DNA of 64,000 bases from an uncultured Chloroflexia bacterium. GTDB lineage: Bacteria; Chloroflexota; Dehalococcoidia; Dehalococcoidales; RBG-16-60-22. The position numbers were made by a program, and so were the translations under genes. Of this stretch, positions 14,031 to 63,804 are shown piece by piece (the stretch's first letter is position 1; every line of letters starts with the position of its first letter). The notes beneath the pieces were generated by a model, which ran no database searches, had not been told where the DNA came from, and was given only the letters and a program-made list of their open reading frames with translations. The stretch lies in contig CAWCLJ010000004.1 of the NCBI GenBank assembly GCA_963796365.1, forward strand, positions 1,721,275 through 1,785,274. The letters run 5' to 3'.

Positions 14031-15536
14031 ATGTCTTCCCTGTTGGATAGAATCAATCATAACATCGATGAATTGAATCACCTGCCGGAACCGGCGGTAA
14101 ACCCGCCGGCAGCTATAAGTTTTCATGATTCCCCCCGGGTTCAGCTCTTTTTCTTGAGTATCCTCCTTAAACTGGCAAGCTCGGGCATTTCCGGGGTTGG
14201 CTTTTATATGCTGCCGCCGCCCATAGCCGTGCTCGGGCTCCTGTTAACTATTCTCTGGCTGACAATGTTGTTTTTAGTTGCCCTGCCCGGCTCCGCTGCC
14301 GTACTTCAGCGCCAGAGCCGGTGGATGCGGCCGGCGGCCAGAGCGGTTTCATATTTTATCGTTATCGCTGCCGTAGTATGGGCTTCTATCGCTGTCACCA
14401 TAAATGTAAACCGGAATAACCCGGTATCGGCTTTCTTTTCCGGCCAGCCTTCGACAAATGTTCTTAGCTCCCTCCAAACGATTTTCGGATATAATGACGG
14501 GACATCGCTCTGCCAGCAGGCGGCGCAAAATGCCATCAATGGGAAAAATCCCTATGCCAACGCCAATATCGTCACGGCTACCATAACCTACGGCGGTGGG
14601 GATTTGAAAGTCACGCCGTTAAGACGCGGGCAACTCGCCGGCGCTTTTCCTTATCCCAACCTGGCCGAGCTTCAGTCCTTATGGGCGCAGGCATTAAAAC
14701 ACCCGGATGTCATCCCTCCGGAAATTGAATCGAAGCTGAATTACCCTTCAGGGAGTTTCCTTATCCTCATACCTTTTATTCTCATCGGCGTTAACCGCGC
14801 CTGGGAAATATACGCCATCCTCTTGGCCGCGGCGTTTGCCATTACCACCTTTCAGATTAAGGAAAACAACCGCATCATTTTTCTTCTGGCGCTGCTTGTC
14901 AGCGTCGAGTTGCCCAACATGATAGCGGTAGGGGAAACAGGGACGTTGCAGTATCCTTTCTTGCTGCTCGGCTGGGTGCTTATGAAAAAACATTGGCGTA
15001 CTTCTGCTGTTATGATGGGTATTGCGATAAGCATCAAGCAGATAAGCTGGTTTTATTTCCCGTTCTATCTGATTCTTCTTTTAAGAGAAACCGGCATGAA
15101 GCGCTTCCTCGCCGGCGCCGGTATCGCCGCAGGAATTTTCCTGGCGGCCAATCTTCCATTCTTTGTCCTCGCCCCGCGTTTATGGATAAACTCGATTAGC
15201 GCGCCGCTGACCGCCCCGATGTTTCCGCTGGGCATCGGGATTATATCGCTTGTAAGCGGGCACATAATCAATATTCACAATCCACTGCCGTTCACCTTGC
15301 TGGAATGCCTGGCTTTTATAGGCGCCCTTATCTGGTATTACCGATACTGCCGGCGTTTCCCGTATACCGGGCCGCTGCTTGCCGTCCTGTCGCTTTTCTT
15401 CGCCTGGCGGAGCATGTGGTCTTACTTTTTCTTCGCCGATATTATCATGCTGACGATGATTTTGGCGGGCGACTTTGACGCCGGGGAAACTTCTGCCGGT
15501 CAGGATATTAATCGCTTTTTGCGTATAAGCCGGTAA
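14031..15536 (+). CDS. polytopic membrane protein, possibly GT-C type glycosyltransferase (DUF2029/GT87-like)
   Basis: 501 aa, more than 10 TM helices with one large loop. The functional call is weak. Confidence 0.4.
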   Translation: MSSLLDRINHNIDELNHLPEPAVNPPAAISFHDSPRVQLFFLSILLKLASSGISGVGFYMLPPPIAVLGLLLTILWLTMLFLVALPGSAAVLQRQSRWMRPAARAVSYFIVIAAVVWASIAVTINVNRNNPVSAFFSGQPSTNVLSSLQTIFGYNDGTSLCQQAAQNAINGKNPYANANIVTATITYGGGDLKVTPLRRGQLAGAFPYPNLAELQSLWAQALKHPDVIPPEIESKLNYPSGSFLILIPFILIGVNRAWEIYAILLAAAFAITTFQIKENNRIIFLLALLVSVELPNMIAVGETGTLQYPFLLLGWVLMKKHWRTSAVMMGIAISIKQISWFYFPFYLILLLRETGMKRFLAGAGIAAGIFLAANLPFFVLAPRLWINSISAPLTAPMFPLGIGIISLVSGHIINIHNPLPFTLLECLAFIGALIWYYRYCRRFPYTGPLLAVLSLFFAWRSMWSYFFFADIIMLTMILAGDFDAGETSAGQDINRFLRISR

Positions 15537-44081: not shown

Positions 44082-44291
44082 CTAACGTTTCTTGTCACTA
44101 TTTTGTACCATGTCCGCAAATCTTTTAAAGGAGCGGTCGTAATTGCCCTCGATTTCCGCCGGGAAAGCGCAGGCGGGTAATTCTTCCATTTCCAGATGGT
44201 AGGCGATACATTCGCAGCACTTGCCTTTGCGCGGGCAGGGTTCGTAAGTGCAGTTGCACTTAGATTTGTTGGCTTTTAAGTTACATTCCAT
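44082..44291 (-). CDS. small Cys-rich protein (DUF6485-like)
   Basis: CNCTYEPCPRKGKCCECIAYHLEMEELPACAFP motif. Confidence 0.5.
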   Translation of the reverse strand: MECNLKANKSKCNCTYEPCPRKGKCCECIAYHLEMEELPACAFPAEIEGNYDRSFKRFADMVQNSDKKR

Positions 44292-44664
44292 ATATTACGA
44301 CCTCAAGCGCATTTTCATTACTTTTTATTTTATTTATTAGTAATGAGGAAATTTTACTCTCCCATTTATTTGTGTGCCCGATTTCATATTCGTTCGAGTC
44401 ATTTTTTGCAGAATAGAAAATTGCATCAATAGGTATCTTGGCCAGATTGTCTATATCTTTTGAGAAAGGATTCTTTAAATAACAATTCAGAACGATACTA
44501 ATTTCTGTATATGCTTCTAATATTTGTTCGATAAATTGCTCATCAAATTTTGGGTTCATCTTTTTTATTGCTTTTCTAATGTTGTTTCTTTTTTGGGAAT
44601 CATTTGAACCCCACGTAACTGACTCAATTCCATCAAGTTTTATATTAAGCAATAAGGTTTTCAT
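44281..44664 (-). CDS. RusA-like Holliday-junction resolvase (tentative)
   Basis: ISIVLNCYLKNPFSKDIDNLAKIPIDAIF parallels RusA [26 protein letters not shown]. AT-rich gene. Confidence 0.4.
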   Translation of the reverse strand: MKTLLLNIKLDGIESVTWGSNDSQKRNNIRKAIKKMNPKFDEQFIEQILEAYTEISIVLNCYLKNPFSKDIDNLAKIPIDAIFYSAKNDSNEYEIGHTNKWESKISSLLINKIKSNENALEVVIYGM

Positions 44665-44684: not shown

Positions 44685-45542
44685 CTACTCCACCTTCGGT
44701 CTTTCTGGATTCTTCCCCTTTAAGATATTTTCCGCCCTCTGCCGGAAAAGCTCCTGCACCAGCGGGTCGGTAAAGATGTAAAAAGTGCCTTCGCGTATCG
44801 CTTTAAAGACCAAATCTGCGTTTTCTTCCGGCGTCAGGGTCGGGGCCACTTTATTAAACTGGCTCACAAGCTGAGCGGTCGGCCGGGGTTCCTGGGATTC
44901 AGTCTTGTTTTTAAAATTGGACGGCCGGTTCCTTTCCGCGTCGAAAAGTTTTGAGCTGACGAAAGCCGGCAGGAGAACGCTGATGCCGATAGGCGAGTTG
45001 GCCTGCTTTAGCTGCATGTAATACCCCTCGGAAAAAGCGATAATAGCTGATTTCGTGGCGGCATAAATAACCAGTTGCGGCTCTAAAAGCAGCCCCGCCA
45101 TGGATGCCGTATTTACTATGTGCCCTTCCGCGTTTTGCTTCATCATTATCGGCAGGAAGACCCTCATGCCGTATATTTCTCCCCAGAGATTGACGCCTAT
45201 CATCCACTCCCAGTCACGGAGGGAAGTCTCCCATATCGGTTTACGCAGGGAAATATCCGTATTCACCCCGGCGTTATTAAAGAGGAGGTGCACCTCGCCG
45301 TATTTCTCGACGGCCTTTTTCGCCAGCGCTTCAATGTCTGATAGCTTCGAGACATCGGTGCGTACCGCCAGGACATCCGCCCCCCGCGCTTTGAGGTCCT
45401 TTTCCGCCTGCTTCAGCGCCCCTTCCTCGATATCCGCGATGACCACCTTCATACCTTCGTCAGCGCACCGCTCCGCCAGCCCCCACCCGATGCCGCTGGC
45501 CCCGCCGGTTATAACTGCTACTTTACCTTTAAAGTCTTTCAT
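44685..45542 (-). CDS. SDR-family oxidoreductase
   Basis: ITGGASGIGWG, NNAG, YAATK motifs. Confidence 0.85.
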   Translation of the reverse strand: MKDFKGKVAVITGGASGIGWGLAERCADEGMKVVIADIEEGALKQAEKDLKARGADVLAVRTDVSKLSDIEALAKKAVEKYGEVHLLFNNAGVNTDISLRKPIWETSLRDWEWMIGVNLWGEIYGMRVFLPIMMKQNAEGHIVNTASMAGLLLEPQLVIYAATKSAIIAFSEGYYMQLKQANSPIGISVLLPAFVSSKLFDAERNRPSNFKNKTESQEPRPTAQLVSQFNKVAPTLTPEENADLVFKAIREGTFYIFTDPLVQELFRQRAENILKGKNPERPKVE

Positions 45543-46046: not shown

Positions 46047-47090
46047 TTACCCGTATTTCCTCCTCATCACCTCGGAAAGCTCGGTGAGTAATTGCAGGGC
46101 GCGCTCCGCTTCTTCTTCATTGGCTAAAGGATTCAGTCCGCAGCAGGGCAGCAGCAGGCTGTGCTTGACGATATCTTTGATTGACAGCCCGTTACGCGTA
46201 AACGGCGCCATGGCCTCTTCTAGCCGGTCTTTCAAACTGGCGACGGTCTCTTTGCTCAACGGCTCGCTGAACTGCGGTACGATGCCCCATGCCACGCATC
46301 CGCCCCGGTTAATAAAGTTTTTTACCTCCAGCGGGTAGAGCGCCAGCGATGCCGCGTAAGAATAAGCGTCAAAGTTGAGTATATCCATCCTGGTTTTCAT
46401 TAATAACGACCAATCGGTGTTGCCGCAGCAGTGAATGCCTTTGAGTCCGCTTATGCCGTCAAAGACCTCATTAAGGATTTCAATGACTTTTTCCGGTTTG
46501 GAAAAATCACCCGCCGCAATGGAGGAACCGTAGGACGACATATAAGGCTCATCTACGAATATAATCGTCTTTTTAGATATCTTCATCAGCGCGTGCTCTT
46601 CCCACGCCGCCTTGAGCTTTAAGAACTTGGGGACGGCGTCCCCCAGCATCTCGTGGTAAAGTATCGAGCGCTTATTTTCATCGGTCACCGTCAGGCCCCA
46701 GGAAAAAGGCCCGGTAATGCACCCTTTGACCGCCTTGGGTGAAAGATTGTCCATTGCCAGAAACTCGTAAAGCCCGGCCGCATATTCACGCCCGATGCTG
46801 TAACGGGAGTAATCGTTTTCCATGTAGGCCATATAAAGCGTTTCCAACTCTTTGGAATAGTCCTTCGAGGTATCGATGTAAAAGCGGTTATTTTCTTTGT
46901 CCAGCGTTGCGCCGGGAAAACCCTCGCTATATTGGATGTACATGTTCTCCATAAATGACCGCCGTGGGAGTTGCGGCCAGGTAGGGATATCTTTAAGGTA
47001 ACGCGTAATCAACGCCGTGGCTTTCCCGGGGTCGGTCATCGGCACGCTCCCGATGGTGGTAATCATGCAATAAAATTCTGTGTTAGCCAT
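46047..47090 (-). CDS. cobalamin-independent methionine synthase-like (MetE C-terminal/Meth_synt_2-like) protein
   Basis: TTIGSVP near the N-terminus, plus GIHCCGN and LLPCCGL putative Zn-ligand motifs. 347 aa. Confidence 0.55.
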   Translation of the reverse strand: MANTEFYCMITTIGSVPMTDPGKATALITRYLKDIPTWPQLPRRSFMENMYIQYSEGFPGATLDKENNRFYIDTSKDYSKELETLYMAYMENDYSRYSIGREYAAGLYEFLAMDNLSPKAVKGCITGPFSWGLTVTDENKRSILYHEMLGDAVPKFLKLKAAWEEHALMKISKKTIIFVDEPYMSSYGSSIAAGDFSKPEKVIEILNEVFDGISGLKGIHCCGNTDWSLLMKTRMDILNFDAYSYAASLALYPLEVKNFINRGGCVAWGIVPQFSEPLSKETVASLKDRLEEAMAPFTRNGLSIKDIVKHSLLLPCCGLNPLANEEEAERALQLLTELSEVMRRKYG

Positions 47091-48186: not shown

Positions 48187-49074
48187 TTAAAAAATACTTG
48201 ATGTAATACAAGATTTGGCAGTGTCTTGGATTATTTTTCTATCATGTTGCACTTTTAAACCCAAATCGTATATTGCACTAGCAGAATTGATTATTTCATC
48301 GCTGAGCTCAAGTTTTTTAAGCATTTTTTTAACATCATTGCGACCTATACCACTAGTATCCGCATCAAGTTCATTACAAATATCTTGAACTAATTCTATC
48401 CAAGCATCTCTAATGAGTAATCCTGTACTTTGGAATTCTTCAATCTTGTCACTCTTTAAAATCTTGTTTTTAGCGAGTCGAAGTTTTTGTCCAACAACAG
48501 GATTAAATAGTTCGATATTAGAAATAGATTCAGTTATCCAATCAGTTTTCGGATTTCGCCAATAACATCTTTTCCATAATTGTTCTTTTTGTAGAAGTTC
48601 TTCATCTTTATCTAGAATCCACTCTGGCCAAGGCCACGTAAGAAGTTCTGCTTCTAATTTTATTTTTTTGTAAATCGGATGCTCTATCTCAAGTAATTTA
48701 CCAAGATCAATTAATTTAAATTCTGCTTCTTTTATAGGGTGCCAGTAGATTGGGATATTTTTTTCTCTAAACATACAGAGAGCTAAAGAAAAGCCTTTTG
48801 CCCCTTCACCACTATAACCGTCTTGAAATCCGCTAGGAATAATGGTTAATGGAAAATGCCACCAATTCCATAATAGAAAAAGATGTTCTCGTCCATTTTT
48901 TGAATATTGAGGAGTTGAAACTAAAGTGGCATTTTCTGGCAATCTACCGCTATTTAGGATTGCATCAATTGCGATTAAACAATCAGACGTGTATCCAGAA
49001 TGTCCAATATATAAAGCTTTATACTTCTCTTCCTCTTCAATTTCTTGCCAATTAATATCATTTGAATTGAACAT
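48187..49074 (-). CDS. hypothetical protein, AT-rich ORFan (296 aa from ATG 49074)
   Basis: Long uninterrupted ORF in visibly AT-rich DNA. No motif recognised. The first 43 codons of the track ORF run into a repeat element, so I did not count them as coding. Confidence 0.5.
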   Translation of the reverse strand: MFNSNDINWQEIEEEEKYKALYIGHSGYTSDCLIAIDAILNSGRLPENATLVSTPQYSKNGREHLFLLWNWWHFPLTIIPSGFQDGYSGEGAKGFSLALCMFREKNIPIYWHPIKEAEFKLIDLGKLLEIEHPIYKKIKLEAELLTWPWPEWILDKDEELLQKEQLWKRCYWRNPKTDWITESISNIELFNPVVGQKLRLAKNKILKSDKIEEFQSTGLLIRDAWIELVQDICNELDADTSGIGRNDVKKMLKKLELSDEIINSASAIYDLGLKVQHDRKIIQDTAKSCITSSIF

Positions 49075-49290
49075 GATTATACCTACTGAAGTAGTACCTA
49101 AAGTATATCCCCGCTTTACATATCTCGCAAGCGGGAATCCGACCTTTTCTCCTGACCTCTTCTCCGCTGGCAGAGAAGAGGCAACGGTAAATACATGATT
49201 CAAGAGAATCTTTTGTCTCCCTCTTTGTCAACGGAGAGGGAGAATATGAGGAAAAGGTCGGTCAAAATCCGTCCTTTTTGAAGGAAAGAT

Positions 49291-49375: not shown

Positions 49376-50152
49376 CTACTTCAAAAACTCGTACGCTTTC
49401 TGGTTGAACTCCTTCTTGTTTTCCATGAAGAACATATGCGACCCACCCTCGATTTTTACGAGGGTTGAACCCGGTATTGCTTTTGCTATCACTTCAGATG
49501 AAACCGGGCTGATAATCCTGTCCCCTGTCCCCACGATAACCAGTGTTGGGGAGGTTATAGAGGGCAGCCTGTCCAAAGTGTTGTGGCTGGCGCAGGCGGC
49601 CGCCTGCCCTTCGATGCCTGCATTTGCGGCGCTTCCCATTAAAAAGGACATTATCGCGGCCATATTGCCGAGGATAAACTTATTCATCGGCTTATTACAG
49701 GCCAGTCTTGCCATCGCCGCCTGCATTTTCCGCGGCGGTAAATTAATCAATTCTTTTTGTTCGGGCGCGTCGCCGCTTACACCGTCCTTGCAGCAGTAGG
49801 TACAGGCCAGCACCAGTTTAGTTATTTTTTCCGGGTAGTTGATGGCCAGTTCCTGCGCAATCATTCCCCCCATGGATGCGCCCAGGACGCGGGCCTGCTT
49901 AATGCTAAGATATTCCATCAGTTTAGCCGCGTCATCCGCCATCATCCTTGTTGTATAAGGCCCCGCCGGCTTATCGCTTTTGCCTACCCCGCGGTTATCG
50001 AATGTAATTACCCGGAAGAATTTTTTAAAGAAAGGGACCTGTGACGACCATGCGCTCCGGGGAGACGTGAACCCCATAATCATTACCAGCGGTTCGCCCT
50101 GTCCTTCTACTTTATAATTAATCTTGATTCCGTTAACGGTTGCGATAGGCAT
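49376..50152 (-). CDS. alpha/beta hydrolase
   Basis: Nucleophile elbow GASMGG, FDNRGVGKS, C-terminal H in GGSHMF. Confidence 0.8.
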   Translation of the reverse strand: MPIATVNGIKINYKVEGQGEPLVMIMGFTSPRSAWSSQVPFFKKFFRVITFDNRGVGKSDKPAGPYTTRMMADDAAKLMEYLSIKQARVLGASMGGMIAQELAINYPEKITKLVLACTYCCKDGVSGDAPEQKELINLPPRKMQAAMARLACNKPMNKFILGNMAAIMSFLMGSAANAGIEGQAAACASHNTLDRLPSITSPTLVIVGTGDRIISPVSSEVIAKAIPGSTLVKIEGGSHMFFMENKKEFNQKAYEFLK

Positions 50153-50474: not shown

Positions 50475-52235
50475 CTATTTATCATACTCCCCCGGCTCAT
50501 CCGGCAGGCCGCATTTGCCGTCTTTACACTCCACCCCGGCTGGTTTCGCCCGCCATTTATCTATCGACTCGCTGCCCTGGTAGCTGTATTCGGAATATTG
50601 CCACAGCGGGTTCGTTTCCCCGCCCACGACGACGAGGCTGATTTTATTCGGGTCGTGATAGGGCGCAATCAGCTCTTCCGGCCTGGCTTTCTTAAAGGTC
50701 GCGAAAGGCTCGATGCCCTGTATCGCCAGCGGGGTTACCATCCAGTCCACATGGTCGAAGCCCCAGTAACGTTCCACCGGCATCTTGATGTTTTCGGAGA
50801 GCCAGCGGCTGTATTCCTGTTTCGTTTTAAAGCCGTCTTTGTTCTTTAACATTTTTGCGATGAGCGGGTCCATGACGATGGTCGCCGCGCCGTTGGTCGG
50901 AGGGATGAAACTCAAGTTGAGGCACATTTCCTCCCCGATTGACCGCCTGGAAGCGGTGCCCGCGCTGTTCACGAAGACCCAGCCGCGGAAAATACTGACC
51001 GTGCTTTCCTCTTTGCGGAACTCGTGCTGCACGTGGAACGGTTCCCAGGGGCTCGCCTCCTCGTTTTCCGCGCAGCAATTATTGTTATAGTTCAGGCTGC
51101 TCCCTTGCGACGACCACATATTCTTTTTGGGCCGGATATCCACCCAGCAGGTGGACATCAGCGACCACGCCCGGCCGATGACCGCGTTAGCCATGTTGAC
51201 CGGCGAAAGCGCGCCGATGCCGGAGTTCATGCCGATTTCATTGCGGATCGGCCCGTTGACCAGCAGCATCGCCGACCAGTTGGATGTTGATGATTGAATG
51301 GCATCCAGTTTGTGCGCGGCGGTTGCCAGAATTACCGGCAAATATTCCGGTTTCGCCCCGGCCATCACCGCGAGCACGGCGACATTTCGCACGGTATACT
51401 TGACCATGCCGCGGATATCGAACCGCATCATCTCCCCGACGATTTCATTCGGGTCGGCGCCGGTGCCGGCGAGCATTTTCTTGACGCGTTCTTCCGTCGG
51501 CAGGATGATGGGGAGTCCGTCCGTCCAGCCTTTATCGTAAAAGAGCTGCTGCAGATTTTCTTCCGTGTCCGGTTTCAGGAAAGACCCGGCGGTTCCTTTG
51601 CTCTCAACTTTGGCGGCTTTGAACTTCAGCTTTTTCGGGTCTACCGGCTTGGTCAGGTTATCGATGATGTCCTGGATGACCGGTTTGCCGCTGTCCGGGT
51701 TCTTGCCGGAGATATAGCCGTCAAGCGTTTCATCGGACATGCCGATAACCGGGTGCGGCGTGAAGAGGAAAGGCACATACCTGGCCTTGCGGTCATTAGC
51801 CACGACTTCGATAAAGGCATCGGTCGTAAAGGGCGCCGTCGGAACACCGTATTTCTGCTCGAGTATTACGCTGGCGCCGGCAACTGCCGACACGCAGCCG
51901 ATTCAGCCCGCCACACCGATGACGGCGGCATCCCCGTTGGCTTTTATTTCGTTCCACAGCGCCGTATCTTTTTCGGTAAGAAAAGTATTCGGGGTGCGCT
52001 TGCGGACGGTCTTGACGGACGGCATGTTTTTTTCAAACCAGCGCTGTACCGCCATCATGAATTTATAGCTGCCGCCATACCCGATATCTATCAGGTAAAC
52101 GGTCTTGCCGTCCAGCATCTGGAGCCGTTTCGCCAGGGATTCTTTGGCTATTTCCGGCCCCGCAAAGACGCCTTGGTTCATCGTTAGGCCGATAGGTTCG
52201 GGGTTTAAAACATTATCCAGTAATTGTATCGTCAA
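50475..52235 (-). CDS. candidate selenoprotein, paralog 1: GrdB-like U-x-x-C domain fused to an uncharacterised ~400-aa domain (586 aa if TGA 51903-51905 = Sec)
   Basis: ORFs 51903..52235 and 50475..51893 share a frame. The joined product reads ...GDAAVIGVAG-U-IGCVSAVAGASVILEQKYGVPTAP.... TTG start 7 nt after AAGGAGG. Homologous along its length to 54392..56077, with the TGA at the same position. Confidence 0.7.
51870..51898 (-). promoter_or_regulatory. putative bacterial SECIS hairpin (paralog 1)
   Basis: GCUG-CGU-GUCGGC-AGUU-GCCGGC-GC-CAGC starts 4 nt after the UGA. The apical loop starts at nt 18 after the UGA (17 nt intervening). Confidence 0.5.
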
Positions 52236-52271: not shown

Positions 52272-53246
52272 TTACTTCTTTTTCGGCGAAGACGTTTTGA
52301 CCGCGTTTTTGACCCATGTCAGGTCGGCGCGGGCCTTGGAAAAACCGGAATCCGTCTCCGAGAACGGGTCGTGGCGCATGGCCCTTTCTTCTGCCGCCTT
52401 TTTGTCCAGCGCCTCCTGGCGCCTCATGCCTTCCGGGCTGGAATAATTAAGGATACGCTGGAAATTGTCTTTCAGCATCTGTTCGCTGTTGGCATAAGGG
52501 ATGACGTAAAGCTGGTCATTCTCGATGCCTCGCTTCAGCCAGCCGGCCAGTTCCACCGGGTCCATGCCCTGGGCATGGATGGAGCGCAGGAAATCTATTG
52601 TCTTTTCATTAACGTTATAACCGGTATTCGCCAGGCTCTTGGGGCGTGTATAGACCGCTTCCGCAATATTCGACCGGATATTGGCCGGGCACAGGCAGGT
52701 CACGCCGATGCCGTAAGGCTTGAGCGCCATGTAATAGCTTTCCATCAGGTTATTCACCGCGGCTTTGGCGGCGGAGTATGGCGCCGTCCCCGACCCGCCC
52801 ATGAAACCACCCCACGAGGATGTAGTGGCGATGTGTCCGCCCTTACCGGCTTTAATCATGCGTGGCACGAACGTTACCAGGCCGTTAATGACGCCGCCTA
52901 GGCACACCCCGATTACCCAGTCATAATCTTCGTAAGTTGATGCTTCGGCCGGCCCGAAAGTATTTACCCCAGCGGTATTGATTAAAAGTTGCGGCGGACT
53001 GCCGAAAACCTTTTCCGTTTCATCCGCCGCGGCGGCGTAGGCTTTACGGTCGGTCAGGTCGAATTTGATGGCATGTACCGGTGCTTTCTTTTCCTTAAAA
53101 TAGGTCATCGCCTCATCGATATGGTCTTGCCGTATGTCGGCGATAACTACCTTCATGCCGGCCTCGGAAAATACTTTAGCTTGCCCCAGCCCCGCCCCGC
53201 TCGCCCCGCCTGTAATAAAAGCCACTTTCCCGGCAAAATCTTTCAC
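52272..53246 (-). CDS. SDR-family oxidoreductase
   Basis: ITGGASGAGLG, NTAG, YSAAK motifs. Paralog of 53422..54366. Confidence 0.85.
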   Translation of the reverse strand: MKDFAGKVAFITGGASGAGLGQAKVFSEAGMKVVIADIRQDHIDEAMTYFKEKKAPVHAIKFDLTDRKAYAAAADETEKVFGSPPQLLINTAGVNTFGPAEASTYEDYDWVIGVCLGGVINGLVTFVPRMIKAGKGGHIATTSSWGGFMGGSGTAPYSAAKAAVNNLMESYYMALKPYGIGVTCLCPANIRSNIAEAVYTRPKSLANTGYNVNEKTIDFLRSIHAQGMDPVELAGWLKRGIENDQLYVIPYANSEQMLKDNFQRILNYSSPEGMRRQEALDKKAAEERAMRHDPFSETDSGFSKARADLTWVKNAVKTSSPKKK

Positions 53247-53421: not shown

Positions 53422-54366
53422 TTATTTCCAGTCCGGCGGGCCTACCTGTTTCTGTTTATCGTAAATAGGGTTATATATGGCCGACCCAAAATCCTTGATG
53501 ACCGACCAGCGTTTTTCATTACGCGGCTCATCCGGGCAGGCGCGTATGATGGCGTCATGGCGGGCTTTGAAACCTGCCTTGAATTCCGGATGGGTGATAA
53601 TAAAAAGGTCGTTGTTCCTGATACCGCGTATTACCCGCTCCCCCATCTCTAACGGGTCCATCGCCACGGAGAAAATATCGATGGGCGGTTTATCACTTTT
53701 CCTGGCGCCGGGCGGCGGTTTCGGCGGCCATGTGTCCCCCGGACTTTTGAACTTCGCGGGCTTATTATCGAAAGAAGTCTGCCCCAGGTTGCTCACCGTT
53801 GGCCCGGGAATGAGCACGGAAGCTCCAATGTTCCGGTTTTGGTAATCTGAAGCGAGGCATTCCATCAGACCGGCCACGGCATACTTGGTCATACAGTAAA
53901 TAATAAAGCCGTCGGAGCCCATCAGCCCGCAGGTCGATGATGTGGAAATGACATGCCCGCCCTCGCCGTGCTTTAACATGCGTGGCAGGATGGTCATCAC
54001 GCCGTTAATCACACCGTTAATATTGACGTCGCTGCTGTAGTCCCAGTCTTTATACGTCAGGTTCTCTATCGTGCCCATCGTGGAACTCACCCCGGCATTA
54101 TTGACCAACAGGTGTATTTTCCCGAAGACTTTTTCCGCCTCATCGGCGGCTTTAGCATAAGCCTCTCTGTCTGTGACATTCAGTTTGATCGTATGGACGG
54201 GCAGTTTTTTCTCTTTGAAGTATTTCGCCGCTTCATCCAGCGCTTCCTGCCGCATATCGGCCAATATCACTTTCATGCCGTATTTAGCGCAAGTCTTGGC
54301 AATTCCCAGCCCGATACCGCTGGCCGCGCCGGTAATAAATGCGACTTTTCCTTTCAGGTCCTTCAT
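53422..54366 (-). CDS. SDR-family oxidoreductase
   Basis: ITGAASGIGLG, NNAG, YCMTK motifs. 314 aa. Confidence 0.85.
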   Translation of the reverse strand: MKDLKGKVAFITGAASGIGLGIAKTCAKYGMKVILADMRQEALDEAAKYFKEKKLPVHTIKLNVTDREAYAKAADEAEKVFGKIHLLVNNAGVSSTMGTIENLTYKDWDYSSDVNINGVINGVMTILPRMLKHGEGGHVISTSSTCGLMGSDGFIIYCMTKYAVAGLMECLASDYQNRNIGASVLIPGPTVSNLGQTSFDNKPAKFKSPGDTWPPKPPPGARKSDKPPIDIFSVAMDPLEMGERVIRGIRNNDLFIITHPEFKAGFKARHDAIIRACPDEPRNEKRWSVIKDFGSAIYNPIYDKQKQVGPPDWK

Positions 54367-54391
54367 GTTATTCTCTCTTTCGCGGTTAAGG

Positions 54392-56077
54392 TTACTCTAT
54401 CCCGCAGGAACCGTCGGCGCAGCTCTTGCCCACCGGCATTCTCAGCGGTTTGGCGTCTTTCTTTATCCCTTTCTTAGGTATCCATTTGTCCACCGGCCAG
54501 GTTTTACTGTAGATAAAGTTGGAGGTGGCATATATGGGGTTAGTCTCTCCGCCAACGACGATGAAATTAATCTTGTCCGGATTCATCGGGAACGGTGAGT
54601 TGGCTTTTTTGATGATCCATTCCTTGAGTTTCTTCAGGTCGGTATATCCCTCGTTATAAACGCTCCTGGCTACCAGCGGGTCGAGAATTACCGCGAAGTT
54701 GCCCATCATCAGGCCCAGGTTTTTCATGGAATTGTAGATATTCTCTGCGCCGCCGATGCCCAGGTTAACGACATCCCAGCCGCGGAACAGGCTGATGGTG
54801 CTTTCTTCCGCCTTAAATCCTTTCTGAACGTGGAAAGGCTGCCAGGGATTTTTCTCTTCATTTTCCGCCACGCACATATTCGTGAAGCTCAAGCCGTTGC
54901 CGAGCGTTGCCATATAGGTATCTCCCAGCCTGGCATCGCCAAAGTTGATACTCATCAATGTCCACGCCCGGCCGATGACTGCGTTGGCGTAATTGAAAGG
55001 ACCGAAGGCGCCGCCGCCGCTGTTCATGCCTATGTCTTTGCGAACCGGCCCGTTGACCACCACCATGCACCCGTAGGAACCGGTGGAACTAGGCAGGGAA
55101 GTCTGGTTCGATGATGCGATCGCCAGGATAACCGGTAAGTGTTCCGGCCTGGCGCCGGCCATGACCGCGTTGGCGGCCACTTTCTCGACTGTATATTCAA
55201 GCCGTTCTTCGACCGGTGTTATGGACATGATACCCACGATTTCATCGGGGGCGTGGTCGGTGCCGGTTAGCATTTCGGCGACGCGTTCCTCCGTGGGGAG
55301 TACTATTGGCAGGCCGTCCGTCCAGCCGTTTTCTAAGAACATACGCTGTAAATTGATCTCTGCATCCGGTTCAAGAAGCCGTTCGTGTTTTGGCTTTTTG
55401 AGCATCTTCATGTTTTTCTCGGCATCGGTTAGCGGCTGCGTCAGGGCGAAGATAATTTCGTCCATCAGGGGCGCTCCGGAAATGGGGTCGTTGCCGTTGA
55501 CGTAGCCGTGCAGTGTCTCGCGGGAGACCCAGCCGACCGGGTAGGGCGGGAAGCTCCAGCGCAGGTTCATGCCGTGGGTACGGCCGTCCCTCTGCATATA
55601 CTCGGCAAAGCGGGATGTAACGACGGGCGCGGTAGGCAGGTTATAAGCATGTTCCAGTGTCCGGGCAAATTCGGCGAGACTCGCCGAACAACCGTCTCAG
55701 CCCCCCACCCCGATGATGACGGCATCGGCGTCTTTTTTAATCACCGGCCAGAATTCCGGCGCATCGGCAAAGGTGTTGCCCGGTTTAACGCGCAATTCCG
55801 TCTTCACTAACGGCCTGTGCTGTTTGAACCATGCCTGTGCTTCTTCCATGAATTCATGGCTGCCGGCAAAGCCGGTGTCAACTAATATCACCCTTTTATT
55901 GTCCAGGCTTTTCAAACGGGGCGCCATGTGCAGGTGTTTCAGTTCATCCCGTGAAATGGTGGGTTGTACCGCCGGGTCGGTAATGGCCATCATATCGTCT
56001 CCGGGGTTTAACCTCCGGCCGAAAATTCCCGATGGCTGCCCTCTGGGGTCGAGAACGGTAATTTTTGTTTCTTTCAT
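54392..56077 (-). CDS. candidate selenoprotein, paralog 2: GrdB-like U-x-x-C domain fused to an uncharacterised ~400-aa domain (561 aa if TGA 55697-55699 = Sec)
   Basis: ORFs 55697..56077 and 54392..55597 share a frame, with 33 stop-free codons between them. The joined product reads ...DADAVIIGVGG-U-DGCSASLAEFARTLEHAYNLPTAPVV... Confidence 0.7.
55670..55688 (-). promoter_or_regulatory. putative bacterial SECIS hairpin (paralog 2)
   Basis: UUCGGCG-AGUCU-CGCCGAA, perfect 7-bp stem. The stem starts at nt 9 after the UGA (8 nt intervening) and the apical loop at nt 16 (15 nt intervening). Confidence 0.5.
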
Positions 56078-56212
56078 GTTGATACTTCCTTATTTTTCCG
56101 CCAAATGCCGGAGCAGAAACGTCATGCGGGGATTTTAGCGCGTCGTCCGGTTGGGGCGGTTTGACGCTCTTCTGACATAAGTGTTGGAAATTGTTATGAA
56201 TAGTTCTTGCGG

Positions 56213-56878
56213 CTATTTTTTGTTAAGCGGCCGTAAAATCGCTCGAGAGGGGCCGGCATCTCCATTGTACATCAATAGCGGCAGGCAGAGAAGTTCGTAT
56301 TCACCGGCCGGCACATGCCCCAGGGCGCAGTTTTCCAGGATATAAACGCCGGCGCCGAGCAATTTCTGGTGCGTCTGGATGATGCTGTCCGGGTCCTGGT
56401 ATTTCCCGATGGTAATGTTGTCCAGCCCGAACATGAGAACGCCTTTTTCCACCAGATAGTCCGCCGCTTTGGTATCCAGGTAGACGTAATTTTCCTGGAA
56501 TTTGGCGCTTTCATACGTTCGCGGGGAGTTGGCGGTCTTGCAGAGCAGCCGGTCGCCTTTTTTTATTTTGTTCTTTTCCAGCTCCGCTACTTTAATGGAC
56601 TCTTTGTCTTTAATCTCGATAACGCGGCACGGGCCGATGGTGGCCTCCACGTCCATATCGGATATCGTCGAGCCGTCCGGTATAAAGTGTAGCGGCGCAT
56701 CGAGGTGTGTACCGGTATGCCCGATAATTTCCAGCATGCATAATGTCGCCATGCTGCCTAATGCCCGGTCGTTGATACGGTAAATCCTTGGCGGTGCCGG
56801 GTCGGTGGGGAAATAGACCATGCCCTGTTTGATAGGCACGGAAATATCGTACCATCCCCTGGGTAATTTGACTGTCAT
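56213..56878 (-). CDS. cyclase-family protein (kynurenine formamidase-like amidohydrolase)
   Basis: IIGHTGTHLDAPLHF (HxGTHxDxPxH) motif. 221 aa. Confidence 0.75.
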   Translation of the reverse strand: MTVKLPRGWYDISVPIKQGMVYFPTDPAPPRIYRINDRALGSMATLCMLEIIGHTGTHLDAPLHFIPDGSTISDMDVEATIGPCRVIEIKDKESIKVAELEKNKIKKGDRLLCKTANSPRTYESAKFQENYVYLDTKAADYLVEKGVLMFGLDNITIGKYQDPDSIIQTHQKLLGAGVYILENCALGHVPAGEYELLCLPLLMYNGDAGPSRAILRPLNKK

Positions 56879-56924: not shown

Positions 56925-57959
56925 ATGGAAGGGCAGGTAAAAAACATGGGCGATAGTTTAAAAGGTAAAGTTGCCATTGTTACCGGGTCGGGGCAGGGCA
57001 TCGGCCGGGGAATAGCTTTCGGGCTGGCGGCGGAAGGCGCCAAAGTGGTCACCAATAACCGCAAACCGGGCTCCACCGGCTATGCCATCATGAATGAAAA
57101 GCTGGTGAAAGATTTACCGAAAGTTAAGCAGGCCTGGTTTAAGAAACATGTGGCGGAAGATACCGGCGATGCCGAGACTACCGCCGCGAAAATCCGGCAG
57201 TTAGGCGGCGAAGCCCTTGCGTTTTTCGGGGATATGTCCGATTTTGAGATGGCCCGTAAAATCGCTAAAACGACCAAAGAGCATTTCGGGAGAATCGATA
57301 TCCTGGTAAATGTCATCGGGACTTTTGCTTTCAGCCCTATTTGGGAAATGAGCGAAGAGACCTGGGACCATGTCACCCTTGTTAAGCCCAAGTCCCATTT
57401 CAATACTATCCGGCACGTCCTGCCTTATATGATGGAGCAAAAATCGGGGCGCATTCTTAATTGCACTTCCGGCGCGGCCACCGGCAGCCCCAATCAGACG
57501 AATTACGCCGCCGCCAATGCTGGCGTGCTCGGCCTTACGTGGAGCACGGCGATGGAGGTGTATCCTTACGGCATTACCTGTAACGCTTTTGCACCCGGCG
57601 CTTATACCCGTGCCACCTTCGAGCTGGAAGCGATGGTCATGGCGCTGCCGAAGGAAAAACGCCCGTTCCCTGACTCCGAGTTTTTCATGAATATGATGGA
57701 GAACACGCCCGGTCCTGAAGAGCTGGCGCCTTTTATCGCCTATCTTTGCTCCGATGAAGCCGCCAACGTCAGCGGTTCGCTTTTCTTTGTCATGGGAAAC
57801 ACGATTTCACTGTATAATGAGCTGAAATTCGAACGGACGCTGACCCGGCAGGGCGGGAGGTGGACTTTCGACGAGTTGAAAGCGCAAGCCCCCCACTCAT
57901 TATTTATGGGATACCACAGCCCCGCCGCCCCCAATGAAAACCGGTGGGGCGGGAAATAA
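56925..57959 (+). CDS. SDR-family oxidoreductase (long form, 344 aa)
   Basis: VTGSGQGIGRG, YAAANAG motifs. Alternative ATG at 56946. Confidence 0.8.
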   Translation: MEGQVKNMGDSLKGKVAIVTGSGQGIGRGIAFGLAAEGAKVVTNNRKPGSTGYAIMNEKLVKDLPKVKQAWFKKHVAEDTGDAETTAAKIRQLGGEALAFFGDMSDFEMARKIAKTTKEHFGRIDILVNVIGTFAFSPIWEMSEETWDHVTLVKPKSHFNTIRHVLPYMMEQKSGRILNCTSGAATGSPNQTNYAAANAGVLGLTWSTAMEVYPYGITCNAFAPGAYTRATFELEAMVMALPKEKRPFPDSEFFMNMMENTPGPEELAPFIAYLCSDEAANVSGSLFFVMGNTISLYNELKFERTLTRQGGRWTFDELKAQAPHSLFMGYHSPAAPNENRWGGK

Positions 57960-58141
57960 GTTGTCATGCTGGAGTTCGCAAAGGGCGAACGAAGCATCTG
58001 GTAGGGAGGTAAATCTTCCCTTCCAAATGTTTGGGATTTGTATCTTGGTTATTGATTATTCATTATCGGCGTGGCAATCTCACTCTACCGCATGGTAAAG
58101 TGTCATGTATTATGTGTGCAACTAACCTTGAATCGTAAACC

Positions 58142-59333
58142 TTGCCTCGGGAGGTAATTTCCATGACCATGAAAATTGATATGGAAAACCAGGTCTACCG
58201 TGATTTGCAAAAACATCTGGATAAAGGGCCGGTCGGGTTTCCCGCCACCAAATCCGGGGTTGAAATCCGCATGCTTAAGTTTTTCTATTCCCCGGAAGAA
58301 GCCGGGATTGCCGCGATGCTTTCCCCGCATAAACTGGAACCGGTCGGCCGTATATTGAAACGCGCGCGCAGGCATGGCCTTAATCTTACCCGGGAGGAAC
58401 TGCAAAAGAAACTGGACACGATGTTCCAGAAAGGCACGCTGCTCGTCTATACGGACGGCTTTAAAGAGAAGCATTATAAGAACGCCGGTTTTACCGCCGG
58501 CGGCACGCTGGACTTTGCGGTAGGGCGGATTACCCCGGAAATCGAGGAAGTGCATGAGCAATATGTTAAAGAAGCCTTTGCCAGGGTAGAAGTAGGCGCA
58601 AAAAACATCCCGCAGCTCCGCACGGTTCCGGTGGCAAAAAGTATCCCCACCGCCGGAAAAATCCGCCTCGGCAGCTATGATGACGTCCGTCACCTTGTCG
58701 AGCAGGCGCCCGGCCCAATGGCGGTCGCTAAATGTGTTTGCCGCCTGGGCGCGGAAAAGCGCGGCAATCCGTGCTCGAAGAGCCCCATCCGTGAGACCTG
58801 TTTGCAAATCGGCGCCGACCACGCCCGCCAATACGTGGAGATGGGCATCGGGCGCTATGTGACGAAAGAGGAGGTCTTTAAGATGCTGGATGCTGCCCGG
58901 GGGCCGGGTTTATCCTTCAGCCGGAGAATTCGAAGCACCCGGAGGCCATTTGCTGCTGTTGCGGCGATTGCTGCGCCATTTTGAAATCAGTGAAGATGAC
59001 GCCTAAATGGTCGGACCATTTTGCCACTAATTATTATGCAATTGTCGATACGGGCGTCTGTACCGGCTGCGGGACCTGCGTGAAACGCTGCCAGATGGAT
59101 GCCAGGGTCATTGTAAACGGAAAAGCCGTCATCACAACCTGGACCACTGCATCGGCTGCGGCAATTGCGTGACAACCTGTCCTTCTCATGCCAGCAGCAT
59201 GCGGCTTAAAGAGAAGCAATTGGTGCCGCCGGAGACCAAGGACGATACATTCATGAAGATTTATACCCGGCGGGTAGGCTTCCGGAAAGCTTTTACCGCC
59301 AGAATCAAGATGATGCTGGGGATGGATTTATAA
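58142..59333 (+). pseudogene. 4Fe-4S cluster protein, two frameshifts
   Basis: Three frames join to ...KEEVFKMLDAAR / AGFILQPENSKHPEAICCCCGDCCAILKS...VCTGCGTCVKRCQMDARVIVNGKAVI / NLDHCIGCGNCVTTCPSHA...MMLGMDL*. Shifts are near 58897-58907 (CCCGGGGGCCGGG) and about 59135. Confidence 0.65.
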
Positions 59334-62300
59334 TACTTAAATCCATGGCCATCGGCATGGTAAAATAAAAAGTAGAGCCTTTGCCTAAAACGGATTCCAC
59401 CCAGATTTTCCCGCCGTGGGCTTCCACCAGGCGTTTACAGACCAGCAGCCCCAGTCCCAGCCCCGGCTGCGTCGTGGAGGTTTCCGCCAGGCGCTCAAAG
59501 GACTGGAATAGCTTTGACTGGTCCTCCGCAGAGATTCCCCTCCCCTGGTCGCTGACGCTCACTAATATATTGCCGTTTTCTCTTCTGCCGGATATCATGA
59601 TTTCAGTTCCATCCGGTGAATACTTAACCGCATTGTCTATCAGGTTATTGATAATATGCTTTATCCTGGTGCTATCGGCTTCAACTTTAGGAAGTCCCGT
59701 TTCAATTTTCCAGACGAGTCGATGGTTGCCAATATTCGGCTCCCGTTTCTTGACTACTTCCGCTATGGCGGTCTCGATATCGAGGCTGCTCCGGTTAAGC
59801 CGCAGCCGGTCAGCCTGGTACCGGGAAAGCTCGACCAGGTTATCCAGCAGGTGTGACAGTGCTATTGCCCCGGAATCGGCATCTTTTAATAGGTCCTGGA
59901 CCTCTTCCAGCGTCAGCCCTTTGCTCATGGCTACCTTTATTGCCCCGATGACCACGGTAAGCGGAGTCTTTAGTTCATGAGACACCATGCCGAGGAACTC
60001 ATCTTTTAACTCATCGGCTTTCTTGCGTTCGGTAACATCTCGGATATTGATGTCCCTGTATAAAGGCTGCCCGGAGCCATCATTAATTATCGACATATGA
60101 TTGGAGACCCAGACCCAATCCCCGTTCTTTTTGTGCTGCCGGTATTCCGCGTTTGCTGCTCCCGTTTCCAGCGAGCGCTCATGCGCTGTTTGCAGTATCT
60201 TTACATCATCCGGGTGTACCATTGCTATGGCGGCTTTAAGGTCCATTTTTACAAATTCATCCGGAGTATAGCCTACCAGCGCTTGGCATGATGGGCTGAC
60301 ATATTCATATGTCCCGGTCTGCAGGTTAAAACGGATTATCACATCTCTTGAATTATCCAGTACGGAACGGAACTGTGTTTCACTTTCACGTAATGCTACT
60401 TCGGTCTTTCTGCGCCCCATGGCGGCGGATATCCGGTCGGCGATGGTTTTCATTAAGTCCAGCTCTTCATCTGTAAAATGCGTGCGGGACCGGCTGCCGA
60501 AAAACAGCGTACCGGTTGCCTCGTTGCCTATCAGCAGCGGGTGGCAGGCAAAAGCCTGTACCCCATAGCCGCGTACGAGATTGACTAACTCATCGCCGTT
60601 ATAGTGTACATCTTCCGAGACTATCCGTTTACCGGTTTGAGCAACGGAGCCGCAGATGGTAAACCCGAGGTCCAGCCATTCTATCTTATGGGCTTCATTA
60701 TCCGGTATACCGGCATATGCATTTAGTTTCAGACGCCCCTTTTTTTCATCAAGGATGTAATTGAAAAAAATCTGGCAATCCAGGTGTTTCATGACCCCGT
60801 CGGCGATTGCCTGAATGACGCTTTCCGGTTCCGGTACGGTTAACAATAAGGCATTGGCTTCCGCGAGTATCTGGTATCTTTGACGTCTTATCAATAGAGC
60901 TTCTTCTGCTTTCTTGCGTTCCGTGATGTCCCGGGTAATTCCCCGGAAACCGGCGATTTTGCCTCCGCTATTAAAAAACGGTATCGCACTTATCTCAATG
61001 TCAACCGGTTCGCCCTTATTATTGAAGGCTGTATCCTCTTTACGGAATGAGTTCGGATTGTTCGTCAAATCCATAAAGAATTTCTTATTTTCCGCTCCTT
61101 TTTCCGGCGGCATTAATTCGAAAGCATTTTTCCCTATCACCCCCTCCCGTGAATGCCCCCACAACTTTTCCATCTGCGGGCTGCAATAGGTATACTTACC
61201 TGTAGTATCCATCTCCCAGATAAAATCGCTGGTGCTCTCCACAAGTGATTGGTATTTCTGCTGACTTTCTCTTAGGTCTTCCTCTACCTTTTTACTCTCA
61301 TCGATGTTGCGGAGATTGCTGTTCCTGAATAACGGTTTGCCCGAATCATCATAAGTAATGGTCATGCGGTTCGATACCCAGAAATAGCCTCCGTTTTTCT
61401 TCCGCTGGCGGTATTCAACTTCAGCTTTTCCCGTCTTTTCCGCTAAAAGATGCGCCGCATCCAATGAAGCCATATCATCCGGGTGGGTCAAAGAACGCAA
61501 CGTGGGGACATCCATATTAATAAATTCTTCCGTGGTATATCCTGAAAACTCTTGCCAGGACGGGCTTAAGTATATGACTCGCTTGGTCTGCACGTTGAAA
61601 CGTATGATTACGTCCACGGAATTTTCCAGCACCGTGCGGAACCTGGCTTCGTTTTCTCTCAAGGCCTGGTCTGCTTTTTTGCTTTTATCGATATTGGTGA
61701 TATTGCTCTGCCGGTAAAGCGGCCGGCCGTTTTCGTCATTGATGGCGGACATGCGGTTGGAAACCCAGAAATATTCTCCATTTTTCTTCCGCTGGCGGTA
61801 TTCCGCCTCCGCTTTTCCTTCTTTTTCGGCACGCTTGTGTGCCTCTCTAACTAACGGTAAATCTTCCGGATGGACCAGTGTCCCGGCGGTTGATTCACTC
61901 ATGTTCATAAATTCATCCAGGGTATAACCGGTTAAGTCTTCAAATGACGGACTAACGTATTCGTGGTGTAATGTTTGCAGGTTATATCTCGTGATGATAT
62001 CTCTCGAGCTTCCGAGAACGGACCGGAATTTAGATTCGCTTTCCAGCACGGCTGCTTCATACTGTTTGCGTTGGATGGCGCCGGCTATCCGGTCCGCAAT
62101 TGTCTTTATCAGGTCCAGTTCATCTTCATCAAAACTGACACGTGATTTGCTGCCGAAGCCAAGGGTACCGATGGTTTTATTATCTATTTTCAAAGGATAA
62201 CAGGCATATGCCTGCTCCCCGAGATTTCGGAGGAAACGGGCGCGGTCATCGCCGTTATGCTGAATATCTTCCGAGATTATCGGTTTACCGTCCCGGGCAA

Positions 62301-63804
62301 CACAACCGCAGATTGCCTGGCCCAGTTTCAGCCATTGAATTTTCCCGGCTTCTTCAGCGGATAATCCCGTATAAGCATTCAATTTTATACGGCCGGTATT
62401 TTTTTCCAGGATATAGTTAATGAATGTCTCACATTCAAGGTGTTCCAAGACCCCGGCAGCGATGAGGTGGACCGAGTTTTCCGGCACCCTTTCCGTCAGC
62501 AAAACGGCATTCGCATCGGCGAGGATTTTGTTTTTTTCCTGGCTTAACAGTAGAGCTTCTTCGGTTTTTTTTAGCTCCGTAATATCGTGGGCGACCCCTT
62601 GGGCGCCCTTCGGCGCACCTTTTTCATCCCTGGTGAATCTGACATCCAGGAGGACCGATAATATCCGGCCGTCTTTAGTACGGATTCTATATTCGGTAAC
62701 AGCAGCCGGAACCTCTCCTTTTAGCCAGGCTGCCATTCTGCCGCGGAGTTTTTCTTTTCCCGCATCGTCCATGAGTTCCGAAGGAGCCAGCTTTAGAAGC
62801 TCTTCACGGGAATAGCCGGTGATACGGGTCATAGCATCATTAACAGAGATAAATTTTTGCGTCCTGAAATCTAACTCATAGATGCCGGAAGGCGCCGTAG
62901 GGACCAGTTCCGTATATTTTTCTTCCGTTTCTTTTAGCCTGGCCTGCGTGTCTGACAAAAGAGTTATCATGGAACCGGTAGTAGAGATGCCGTTTTTTTT
63001 TGCCTTTATCCCGGCTTCCTGCCGCAACGCCAGGGCGGTAACAGCCAGATATACACCGCTAAGATATTGCAGACTACGTCCTGCCCAACCGAGTACCGAG
63101 CCTACCGAGGGCTGCAAAAGGATCCCGACAATTCCGGCAGCAAAGGAGCCGAGCGACAGGCTGTACCAGTATATAAAACTTGAATTGGTTTTGAGTGATG
63201 TTCCGTAATAAATAAGCGCCGTGATTAAAAAGAGCGCCGCGCCTGTACCGATAACTATCTGCCTAACGATACTAAAACCATTGACCAGAACAAAAGGGGT
63301 TATCCAGCTCTTTACGGCAGATGTGACCAGGATTGCAAATAAAAACAGGATGGTGGCGTAACAGACCAATACCAATATTCTTGCCCGGCTGCTGATTCCG
63401 TTAGGGCTGATGATGTTTTGATAAATTTGTGAAATTAGCAAAATTACCCCGGAACCCAGGACACTGATATTGTAAACCGTAACCCCGGCATTTCTATTAA
63501 TGTTCTCAATTAGCACAGGACTCGTGCATGCGGCAACGCCTATTAAAAGCTGCGCCGTACCTAAAAATAGAAGATACCATCGCCCGGTACGGATAAATGT
63601 GTATCCCATCGTCCCGGCAACTACAAATGAAATTAAGCTTATGAACGTAATATTAAGAATAGTGTTAAGACGAGCGTGTTCATAGCTGCCGGCCGGCGCA
63701 ACGGCATAAATAAAGATGACCGCTGCGATGCAGAGAAACAGCAATACTAATGCCGGGCGTTTAAGGCTTTCCAAAGCCAGTACCTCTTTCCTGACGAGCA
63801 ACAA
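59305..63804 (-). CDS. multi-sensor histidine kinase (TM sensor + PAS/GAF arrays + HisKA + HATPase_c)
   Basis: 1499 aa. About 8 N-terminal TM helices, alternating PAS and GAF modules, [14 protein letters not shown]-box, DNAVKYSP and [24 protein letters not shown] ATPase motifs. No receiver domain. TTG start is uncertain. Confidence 0.85.

Follow-up and report, generated by a model that had tools for sequence, protein, structure and literature searches.

W2, a proposed long-form UGSC selenoprotein gene from an uncultured Dehalococcoidales bacterium, carries a conserved in-frame UGA followed by a covarying hairpin

Within a 64-kb stretch of DNA from an uncultured bacterium of the Dehalococcoidales (64,000 nucleotides (nt) of contig CAWCLJ010000004.1, assembly GCA_963796365.1; hereafter, the window), our analysis centered on a gene, W2, that is interrupted by an in-frame TGA. 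We consider it very likely that W2 is a single 561-residue gene for a long-form selenoprotein of the UGSC family, in which the UGA at codon 127 would be read as selenocysteine (Sec) and a hairpin directly downstream would serve as the selenocysteine insertion sequence (SECIS). The proposed recoding is well supported by the comparison of related sequences. Specifically, the homologues retain TGA at this position almost without exception, the protein is conserved on both sides of it, a homologue with cysteine in its place exists, and the stem of the hairpin covaries, all of which upholds the initial annotation of the locus, where one gene read through UGA had been proposed from the sequence of the window alone.

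The reading frame of W2 is open throughout apart from this one TGA, as judged from both the ORF listing and the translation, and its ATG is preceded 8 nt upstream by AGGAAG. The finder of open reading frames (ORFs) splits the gene into two pieces, 55697..56077 (126 residues) and 54392..55597 (401 residues), which lie in one frame, and no stop occurs in the 99 nt (33 codons) that separate the TGA from the second ATG (55597), exactly as had been claimed for the pair. The junction of the joined product reads ...DADAVIIGVGG-U-DGCSASLAEFARTLEHAYNLPTAPVVTSRF..., the stretch spanning the UGA being ...VIIGVGG-U-DGCSASLAEFAR, and the stop indeed falls in a motif of the U-x-x-C type, which in W2 is U-D-G-C. 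Two credible cases of an in-frame TGA between long open stretches occur in the window, namely W2 and its paralogue W1 (Table 1). TGA is also the terminator of five of the 32 ordinary long ORFs in the window, which indicates that the standard genetic code is in use. Long ORFs additionally lie on the opposite strand over W2 (55713-56138, 54173-54598, and 55083-55505, all on the forward strand); these antisense ORFs are shadows and not genes, and they cluster across loci solely through the conservation of the sense gene.

A search of ~5.8 billion proteins with W2 as the query returned >6,000 matches. Nearly all of the best 120 are ~400-425 residues long and cover the last 71-75% of the query, and they represent gene calls that begin just past the UGA, as does the window's own called product (P0001). 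A protein from a Desulfobacteraceae metagenome-assembled genome (MAG), by comparison, is encoded by a single ORF (P0002; 599 residues, with 65% identity and 99% coverage relative to W2), and its junction reads GVAG-C-DGCSAS, placing Cys at the Sec column. At the genome level, a tblastn scan of one genome per species yielded 78 related loci from the Dehalococcoidales, Acidobacteriota, Desulfobacterota, Bacillota, Actinomycetota, Chloroflexia, and Binatia, with matches that span residues ~4-560 of W2 and run across the TGA. Translating these loci in the matching frame and applying a motif search yielded 61 family genes from at least five phyla; the homologous column is TGA in 59 of them and Leu in the other two. 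The flanks are conserved as well (..LW.EIK...DA...GVGG*DGCSAS.A.F.R..E...G.PTAP..T.RF, the asterisk marking the TGA), and the 33 codons that follow the TGA are as conserved as the remainder (DGCSASLAEF..LE....PTAP). The Sec-encoding genes fall into the sub-types U-DGC (W2-like), U-PGC or U-IGC (W1-like), and U-STC; the best related locus (L001, 82% identity) belongs to a Dehalococcoidaceae MAG that has the U-IGC sub-type on another contig (L067). Further, seven one-ORF relatives have C-x-x-C at the Sec column (P0253, P0261, P0271, P0284, P0352, P0362, and P0389), and C-G-S-C is present in distant one-ORF members. The column that the initial annotation had singled out thus holds an in-frame UGA with coding flanks in orthologues, and Cys in P0002 and the distant C-x-x-C members.

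One alternative is that the locus holds two separate genes, with a 126-residue protein ending at the TGA and a 401-residue protein beginning at the ATG at 55597, which would be in line with public gene callers nearly always giving only the downstream piece. However, the conservation of the 33 codons after the TGA is at odds with an intergenic gap, the called starts vary among homologues while always lying just past the TGA, one-ORF forms of ~560-600 residues (with Cys or another residue) carry the UGSC domain over the junction, and the Pfam match to UGSC (residues 37-190) itself spans the TGA. We regard two genes as extremely improbable, since a TGA kept at one column in nearly every family gene, between conserved flanks, excludes this arrangement along with sequence error and a pseudogene.

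The hairpin downstream of the UGA provides a second line of evidence. In W2, the hairpin opens at nt 9 past the UGA and the loop at nt 16; the loop contains GU, at nt 20-21 when the U of UGA is taken as nt 1, so that a SECIS-like hairpin was found at the distance originally claimed. A hairpin is present across all of the homologues, in one of two registers. In class A (alignment A4; 39 distinct sequences, W2 included; positions again counted from the U of UGA), nt 13-18 pair with nt 24-29 around an AGUNU loop in which A19, G20, and U21 are invariant, 97.9% of the cells are paired, and both sides have changed in four of the six pairs. In class B (alignment A5; 19 sequences, W1 included), nt 15-20 pair with nt 25-30 around a GGUC or AGUU loop in which G22 and U23 are invariant, 94.7% of the cells are paired, and changes on both sides are seen in 22 cells and four of the six pairs. 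The covariation score of either class was reached by 0 of 500 shuffles, and sliding the 3' arm of class A by 1-3 nt reduced pairing to 21-68% (21-76% for the slid controls of both classes together). Within class A, column 15 (in a Ser UCN codon) and column 27 (in an Ala GCN codon) form G-C in 37 sequences and A-U in two, while columns 18 and 24 form G-C, C-G, or U-A, and each of these covarying pairs joins two synonymous third codon positions. In one locus (L017), the compensating change also swaps two residues, Ala to Pro and Ala to Gly. Protein-level selection alone is, therefore, an insufficient explanation for the pairing, and the region following the UGA contains a stem-loop with both a GU-bearing loop and covariation.

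The geometry can be compared to that of the Escherichia coli fdhF SECIS, which likewise is a hairpin directly 3' of the UGA and inside the coding region. The fdhF sequence reads UGA CAC GGC CCA UCG GUU GCA GGUC UGC..., and its GGUC loop (nt 22-25) is identical to most class B loops, which are 1 nt nearer to the UGA; class A loops are 3 nt nearer. The GU of the loop is at nt 23-24 in fdhF, at nt 22-23 in W1 and class B, and at nt 20-21 in W2 and class A. W2 deviates from fdhF in its shorter stem (7 bp), and no equivalent of the bulged U17 of fdhF is evident.

Known bacterial SECIS elements recruit SelB carrying Sec-tRNA(Sec) to the ribosome. By analogy with these systems, a ribosome arriving at codon 127 of W2 would insert Sec at the UGA, with the hairpin at 9-27 nt downstream acting as a putative bacterial SECIS element to which SelB with its Sec-tRNA(Sec) would be recruited. 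Several results weigh against this proposal. First, the single-sequence folding energy of the hairpin is unremarkable and resembles that of shuffles (z = -0.85 for W2 and -0.61 for W1); one sequence alone is thus no proof that the hairpin matters, and it is the comparative evidence that supplies the proof. Second, Rfam scans returned no SECIS family, only noise, with gathering as well as permissive thresholds, a null result to which we give little weight because the bacterial SECIS models of Rfam are, to our knowledge, specific to particular gene families. Third, none of selA, selB, selD, or tRNA-Sec lies within the window, and neither sel genes nor tRNA-Sec were found in 60 related loci that underwent a tRNA scan, results that do not extend to the remainder of the genome. 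Dehalococcoidia that encode 46-49 selenoproteins have been documented (PMC13326102).

The lack of Sec machinery in the window would also fit a UGA that is read without any Sec system, whether by near-cognate read-through or by reassignment to Trp, Gly, or Cys, or a locus that is a pseudogene or contains a sequencing error. Against this, the retention of TGA in 59 independent genomes excludes error or decay, the ordinary ORFs that end in TGA rule out reassignment in general, Cys takes the place of the UGA in relatives that keep the x-x-C context, which is a signature of Sec, and a covarying hairpin of fdhF-like geometry follows the UGA. Decoding by such routes, or decay, is consequently judged highly improbable, and Sec insertion is the reading that we carry forward below.

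The domain that carries the U-x-x-C motif matches the Pfam UGSC family (PF24696) at 61.7 bits, relative to a cut-off of 25, over profile positions 3-156 of 172, and one-ORF relatives of ~560 residues match it likewise. In contrast, the score against the NCBIfam equivalog NF041046 is 40.2 bits, relative to a cut-off of 125, and neither a literal U-G-S-C (U-D-G-C in W2, U-I-G-C in W1) nor a small, single-domain protein is seen. The resemblance to the UGSC family that had been noted in the initial annotation, therefore, stands at the level of the Pfam domain and falls short at the level of the equivalog, which makes W2 a long-form relative that has diverged from typical UGSC proteins. Judged by its sequence, W2 is a long-form member of an already known selenoprotein family, and a few of the shortened homologues (P0161, P0210, and P0224) bear the NCBI label 'UGSC family (seleno)protein'. 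UGSC-containing proteins were first reported in 2007 as a selenoprotein family of unknown function (PMC1976440), were among the most abundant selenoprotein families in the Global Ocean Sampling data, with 255 Sec and 21 Cys forms (PMC2398784), and were still uncharacterized in a 2026 review (PMC13188914). W2 shares with them the U-x-x-C motif, the large excess of Sec over Cys forms, a SECIS (here, SECIS-like hairpin) directly downstream, and the lack of an assigned function. It differs from them in its extra ~370-residue domain and in the occurrence of tandem paralogue arrays beside genes for short-chain dehydrogenases/reductases (SDRs). Moreover, UGSC proteins were surveyed in surface water, whereas the loci related to W2 come from anaerobic or sediment-type and soil lineages. 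A 'UGSC/Unknown_1' fusion is mentioned in the Global Ocean Sampling report (PMC2398784), and its unnamed conserved domain could conceivably correspond to the C-terminal domain of W2.

The remaining ~370 residues of W2 have no match in Pfam or NCBIfam, and the C-terminal domain within them has no sequence match in the PDB, where a profile search gave a single chance match (E = 0.2). Matches of residues 236-321 to Pfam PUA_2 (E = 0.09) and to an NCBIfam sulfate adenylyltransferase model (E = 0.2) were dismissed as noise. A UGSC-like region fused to a large domain that could not be named is, then, what the library searches also returned. Despite this, relatives are plentiful: with the 401-residue downstream ORF (residues 161-561) as the query, exhaustive HMMER searching retrieved 4,177 clusters (50% identity) at E <= 0.001, of which 470 had E <= 1e-30, making this one of the larger protein families for which no Pfam model, solved structure, or function is available. 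The domain carries a series of conserved motifs (GWTDGLPI-LPTEERV, AVMAGA-PE-LPV, SST, VNGP, GMN-G-GA, AN-IGRAW, AENEE-PW-PFHV, FRGW, VVGGETNP, and DKW). The near-invariant residues within them are polar or acidic, specifically T-D of GWTDGLP, T of PTEER, S of SST, N of VNGP, N and R of AN..IGR, and E-N-E, which suggests a binding or catalytic site, and the C-terminal domain is probably where substrate would be bound.

A first AlphaFold model, built on an alignment of mostly partial rows, was poor in its N-terminal half (predicted local distance difference test (pLDDT) score of 69), and its fold matches to fumarate hydratase and IRG1 (E >= 0.08) were not meaningful. A second alignment held 97 sequences, including ~28 full-length one-ORF relatives, and the model of the Cys homologue P0002 reached a mean pLDDT of 90.3 and a predicted template modeling score of 0.89. 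In this model, Cys161, the equivalent of U127, lies in the loop between a strand (residues 153-157) and a helix (residues 162-178), with the second Cys (Cys164) in the first turn of that helix. Redox-active C-x-x-C pairs typically occupy such a strand-to-helix junction. Foldseek searches of the PDB with the P0002 model returned only weak matches, to generic Rossmann or flavodoxin-like alpha/beta proteins over 100-170 columns (E of 2.5e-3 to 3e-2), which by their length and fold type may be attributed to the UGSC domain. A thioredoxin-like fold has been proposed for UGSC (PMC2398784), and no thioredoxin-fold protein was found among the top 50 PDB matches, all of which were weak. Since no match exceeded 268 alignment columns or attained E <= 0.001, the C-terminal domain is without a detectable relative in the PDB. 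Some distant family members have signal-peptide-like, hydrophobic, or twin-arginine-like leaders (P0258, P0294, P0301, P0316, and P0362), which W1 and W2 do not.

At its C-terminal end, W2 carries a short tail with two further cysteines, of which C553 and C558, together with D555, are conserved in its close relatives. This raises the possibility that Sec127, Cys130, C553, and C558 form a metal- or cluster-binding site instead of a catalytic redox pair. The tail motif, C-x-[DE]-x-x-C-G, is kept in W2, in W1 (50475-50530), in P0002, in most U-DGC forms, and in many U-PGC forms, and most members without Sec or Cys do not have it, all of which would suit a joint site, as would a distant CxxC member (P0362) whose twin-arginine-like leader hints at an exported cofactor protein. 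Conversely, Sec occurs without the tail in every U-STC form and in many U-PGC forms, so that the tail as a constant companion of Sec was ruled out, and the tail is modeled at low confidence (pLDDT of 47-70 in the P0002 model). We view a metal site as unlikely and retain the U-x-x-C pair as the candidate redox center.

The genomic surroundings offer some indication of the process in which W2 may take part. W1 is a second long-form UGSC selenoprotein gene that belongs to the operon of W2 and is built like it: it is ~45% identical to W2, has the motif GVAG-U-IGC, is followed by its own hairpin, and returned 7608 matches in its own homologue search. Two SDR genes separate W2 from W1, the region around W1 and W2 has four SDR genes altogether, and a 3.9-kb Logan contig that encodes the window's product shows the same gene order. 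To examine neighbors more broadly, ORFs were clustered from 79 loci, the window region being added to the 78 related ones. These loci hold 111 family genes, with between two and five copies in 23 of the loci. For 35 of the 111 genes, distributed over 29 loci, the immediate neighbor is an SDR of the same cluster, which lies directly downstream on the same strand in 21 cases. Other recurrent neighbors, as judged by eye, are aldo/keto reductases, old-yellow-enzyme-type flavoproteins, uroporphyrinogen-decarboxylase-like proteins, flavodoxin-like reductases, tannase-like esterases, and parts of ATP-binding cassette (ABC) transporters. Oxidoreductases abound in this catabolic neighborhood. Tandem arrays of three to five or more UGA-split copies within ~17 kb were seen in L028, L032, L044, L045, and L051, mainly in MAGs of Acidobacteriota and Chloroflexota, and uroporphyrinogen-decarboxylase-like genes, again by eye, are near family genes in L005, L021, L039, and L060.

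In this setting, and with low confidence, we suggest that W2 may act in the degradation of organic compounds, where it would catalyze a selenol/thiol-dependent oxidoreductase step together with the adjacent SDRs. The U-x-x-C module would give or take two electrons via a selenenyl-sulfide, the substrate would be held by the C-terminal domain, and the neighboring NAD(P)-dependent SDRs would interconvert hydroxyl and keto groups in the same pathway. Three observations speak against such a role. First, no cofactor site or catalytic residue was identified. Second, adjacency to an SDR is found for about one third of the family genes and not for all of them. Third, many distant one-ORF members carry M, T, G, S, or H in place of Sec and have lost the second Cys as well, while keeping the two domains (for example, P0243, P0245, P0256, P0258, and P0285); the C-terminal domain can therefore work without the redox pair, and a redox role is not family-wide. 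The same members imply that the two-domain architecture is older than the redox pair or survives its loss, with the C-terminal domain having a role of its own.

A different kind of selenoenzyme was also considered, namely a reductase subunit of the GrdB/PrdB type, in which Sec would attack a substrate carbon to cleave a C-N bond. W2 and these proteins are alike in being selenoenzymes of anaerobes with a U-x-x-C-type motif and a place in catabolic gene clusters, and the local order of a strand, U-x-x-C, a helix, and then a strand starting with P or IP is similar to that of GrdB/PrdB. Yet the resemblance put forward in the initial annotation could not be detected by profile search, where no glycine- or proline-reductase family appeared in Pfam or NCBIfam scans at E <= 1. 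Further, the domain order differs, the Sec domain of W2 being N-terminal, the partner genes are SDRs, and the conserved neighbors include neither a PrdA/GrdE-like pyruvoyl partner nor a GrdA-like gene. We consider this assignment very unlikely, and the oxidoreductase role outlined above remains our tentative preference.

In the literature searched, the long-form architecture with its large orphan domain, the paralogue arrays, and the SDR partnership are not described. It is conceivable, although we would not yet bet on it, that long-form UGSC proteins constitute an undescribed class of selenoenzymes, in which a catalytic domain of ~370 residues with a new fold and a built-in U-x-x-C module would act with SDR partners, be deployed in tandem arrays for the anaerobic breakdown of different substrates, and make up a sizeable share of the selenoproteome. 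If true, this would amount to a diversification in Dehalococcoidia, Acidobacteriota, and Desulfobacterota and would partly account for the large selenoproteomes reported for them. W2 itself would not surprise a selenoprotein specialist, its value being that of a useful annotation correction and a good target for function discovery. Among the best 120 matches per protein search, public gene calls split nearly every family member at the UGA, and since the calls start past it, the N-terminal redox module is lost from databases and selenoproteomes are undercounted. The strong retention of Sec, the adjacency of SDRs, and the multi-copy arrays together present a concrete target in the search for a new selenium-dependent reaction in uncultured anaerobes.

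Table 1. Positions in the window of W2, W1, their parts, and neighboring genes
Feature	Position	Strand	Details
W2, complete gene	54392..56077	(-)	561 codons + TAA stop at 54394..54392; ATG start at 56077
In-frame UGA of W2, proposed Sec codon	55697..55699	(-)	codon 127, motif GVGG-U-DGC
W2 SECIS-like hairpin	55670..55688	(-)	UUCGGCG/AGUCU/CGCCGAA, perfect 7-bp stem
UGSC domain of W2, alpha/beta, carries U-x-x-C	55508..55969	(-)	residues 37-190, Pfam PF24696
Uncharacterized C-terminal domain of W2	54473..55372	(-)	~residues 235-535
C-terminal tail of W2, C-A-D-G-S-C	54404..54421	(-)	residues 553-558
W1, paralogue	50475..52235	(-)	586 codons + stop; TTG start at 52235; strong Shine-Dalgarno (AAGGAGG) 7 nt upstream
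In-frame UGA of W1	51903..51905	(-)	
W1 SECIS-like hairpin	51870..51898	(-)	GCUG.GUGUCGGC / AGUU / GCCGGCGCCAGC; loop GU at nt 22-23
Cyclase/arylformamidase-like	56213..56878	(-)	just upstream of W2; Pfam PF04199, 3.3e-25; TIGR03035, 140 bits (cut-off 223)
SDR oxidoreductase	53422..54366	(-)	25 nt downstream of W2; adh_short, 5.6e-49; best NCBIfam PRK06194, below cut-off
Second SDR oxidoreductase	52272..53246	(-)	Pfam adh_short, 6.5e-39
Alpha/beta-fold hydrolase	49376..50152	(-)	downstream end of cluster; Abhydrolase_1, 1.5e-31; best NCBIfam 3-oxoadipate enol-lactonase, below cut-off
Third SDR	56925..57959	(+)	flanks the cluster
SDR	44685-45542	(-)	passes the PRK06194 equivalog cut-off (330 bits vs 308)
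Sensor histidine kinase, multiple PAS + GAF	59305..63804	(-)	1,499 residues; adjoins the cluster

Beyond the selenoprotein genes and SDRs, the histidine kinase with PAS and GAF domains is a possible regulator of the W1/W2 cluster. Four further ORFs of the window, each compared with one or both of the Pfam and NCBIfam libraries, had no family match there, namely 48187-49203 (-), which lies just downstream of the selenoprotein/SDR cluster, 58103-58831 (-), 14031-15536 (+), and 44281-44664 (-), with 338, 242, 501, and 127 residues, respectively. Finally, a 347-residue ORF at 46047-47090 (-) has a weak methionine-synthase-like match (E = 3.5e-7).

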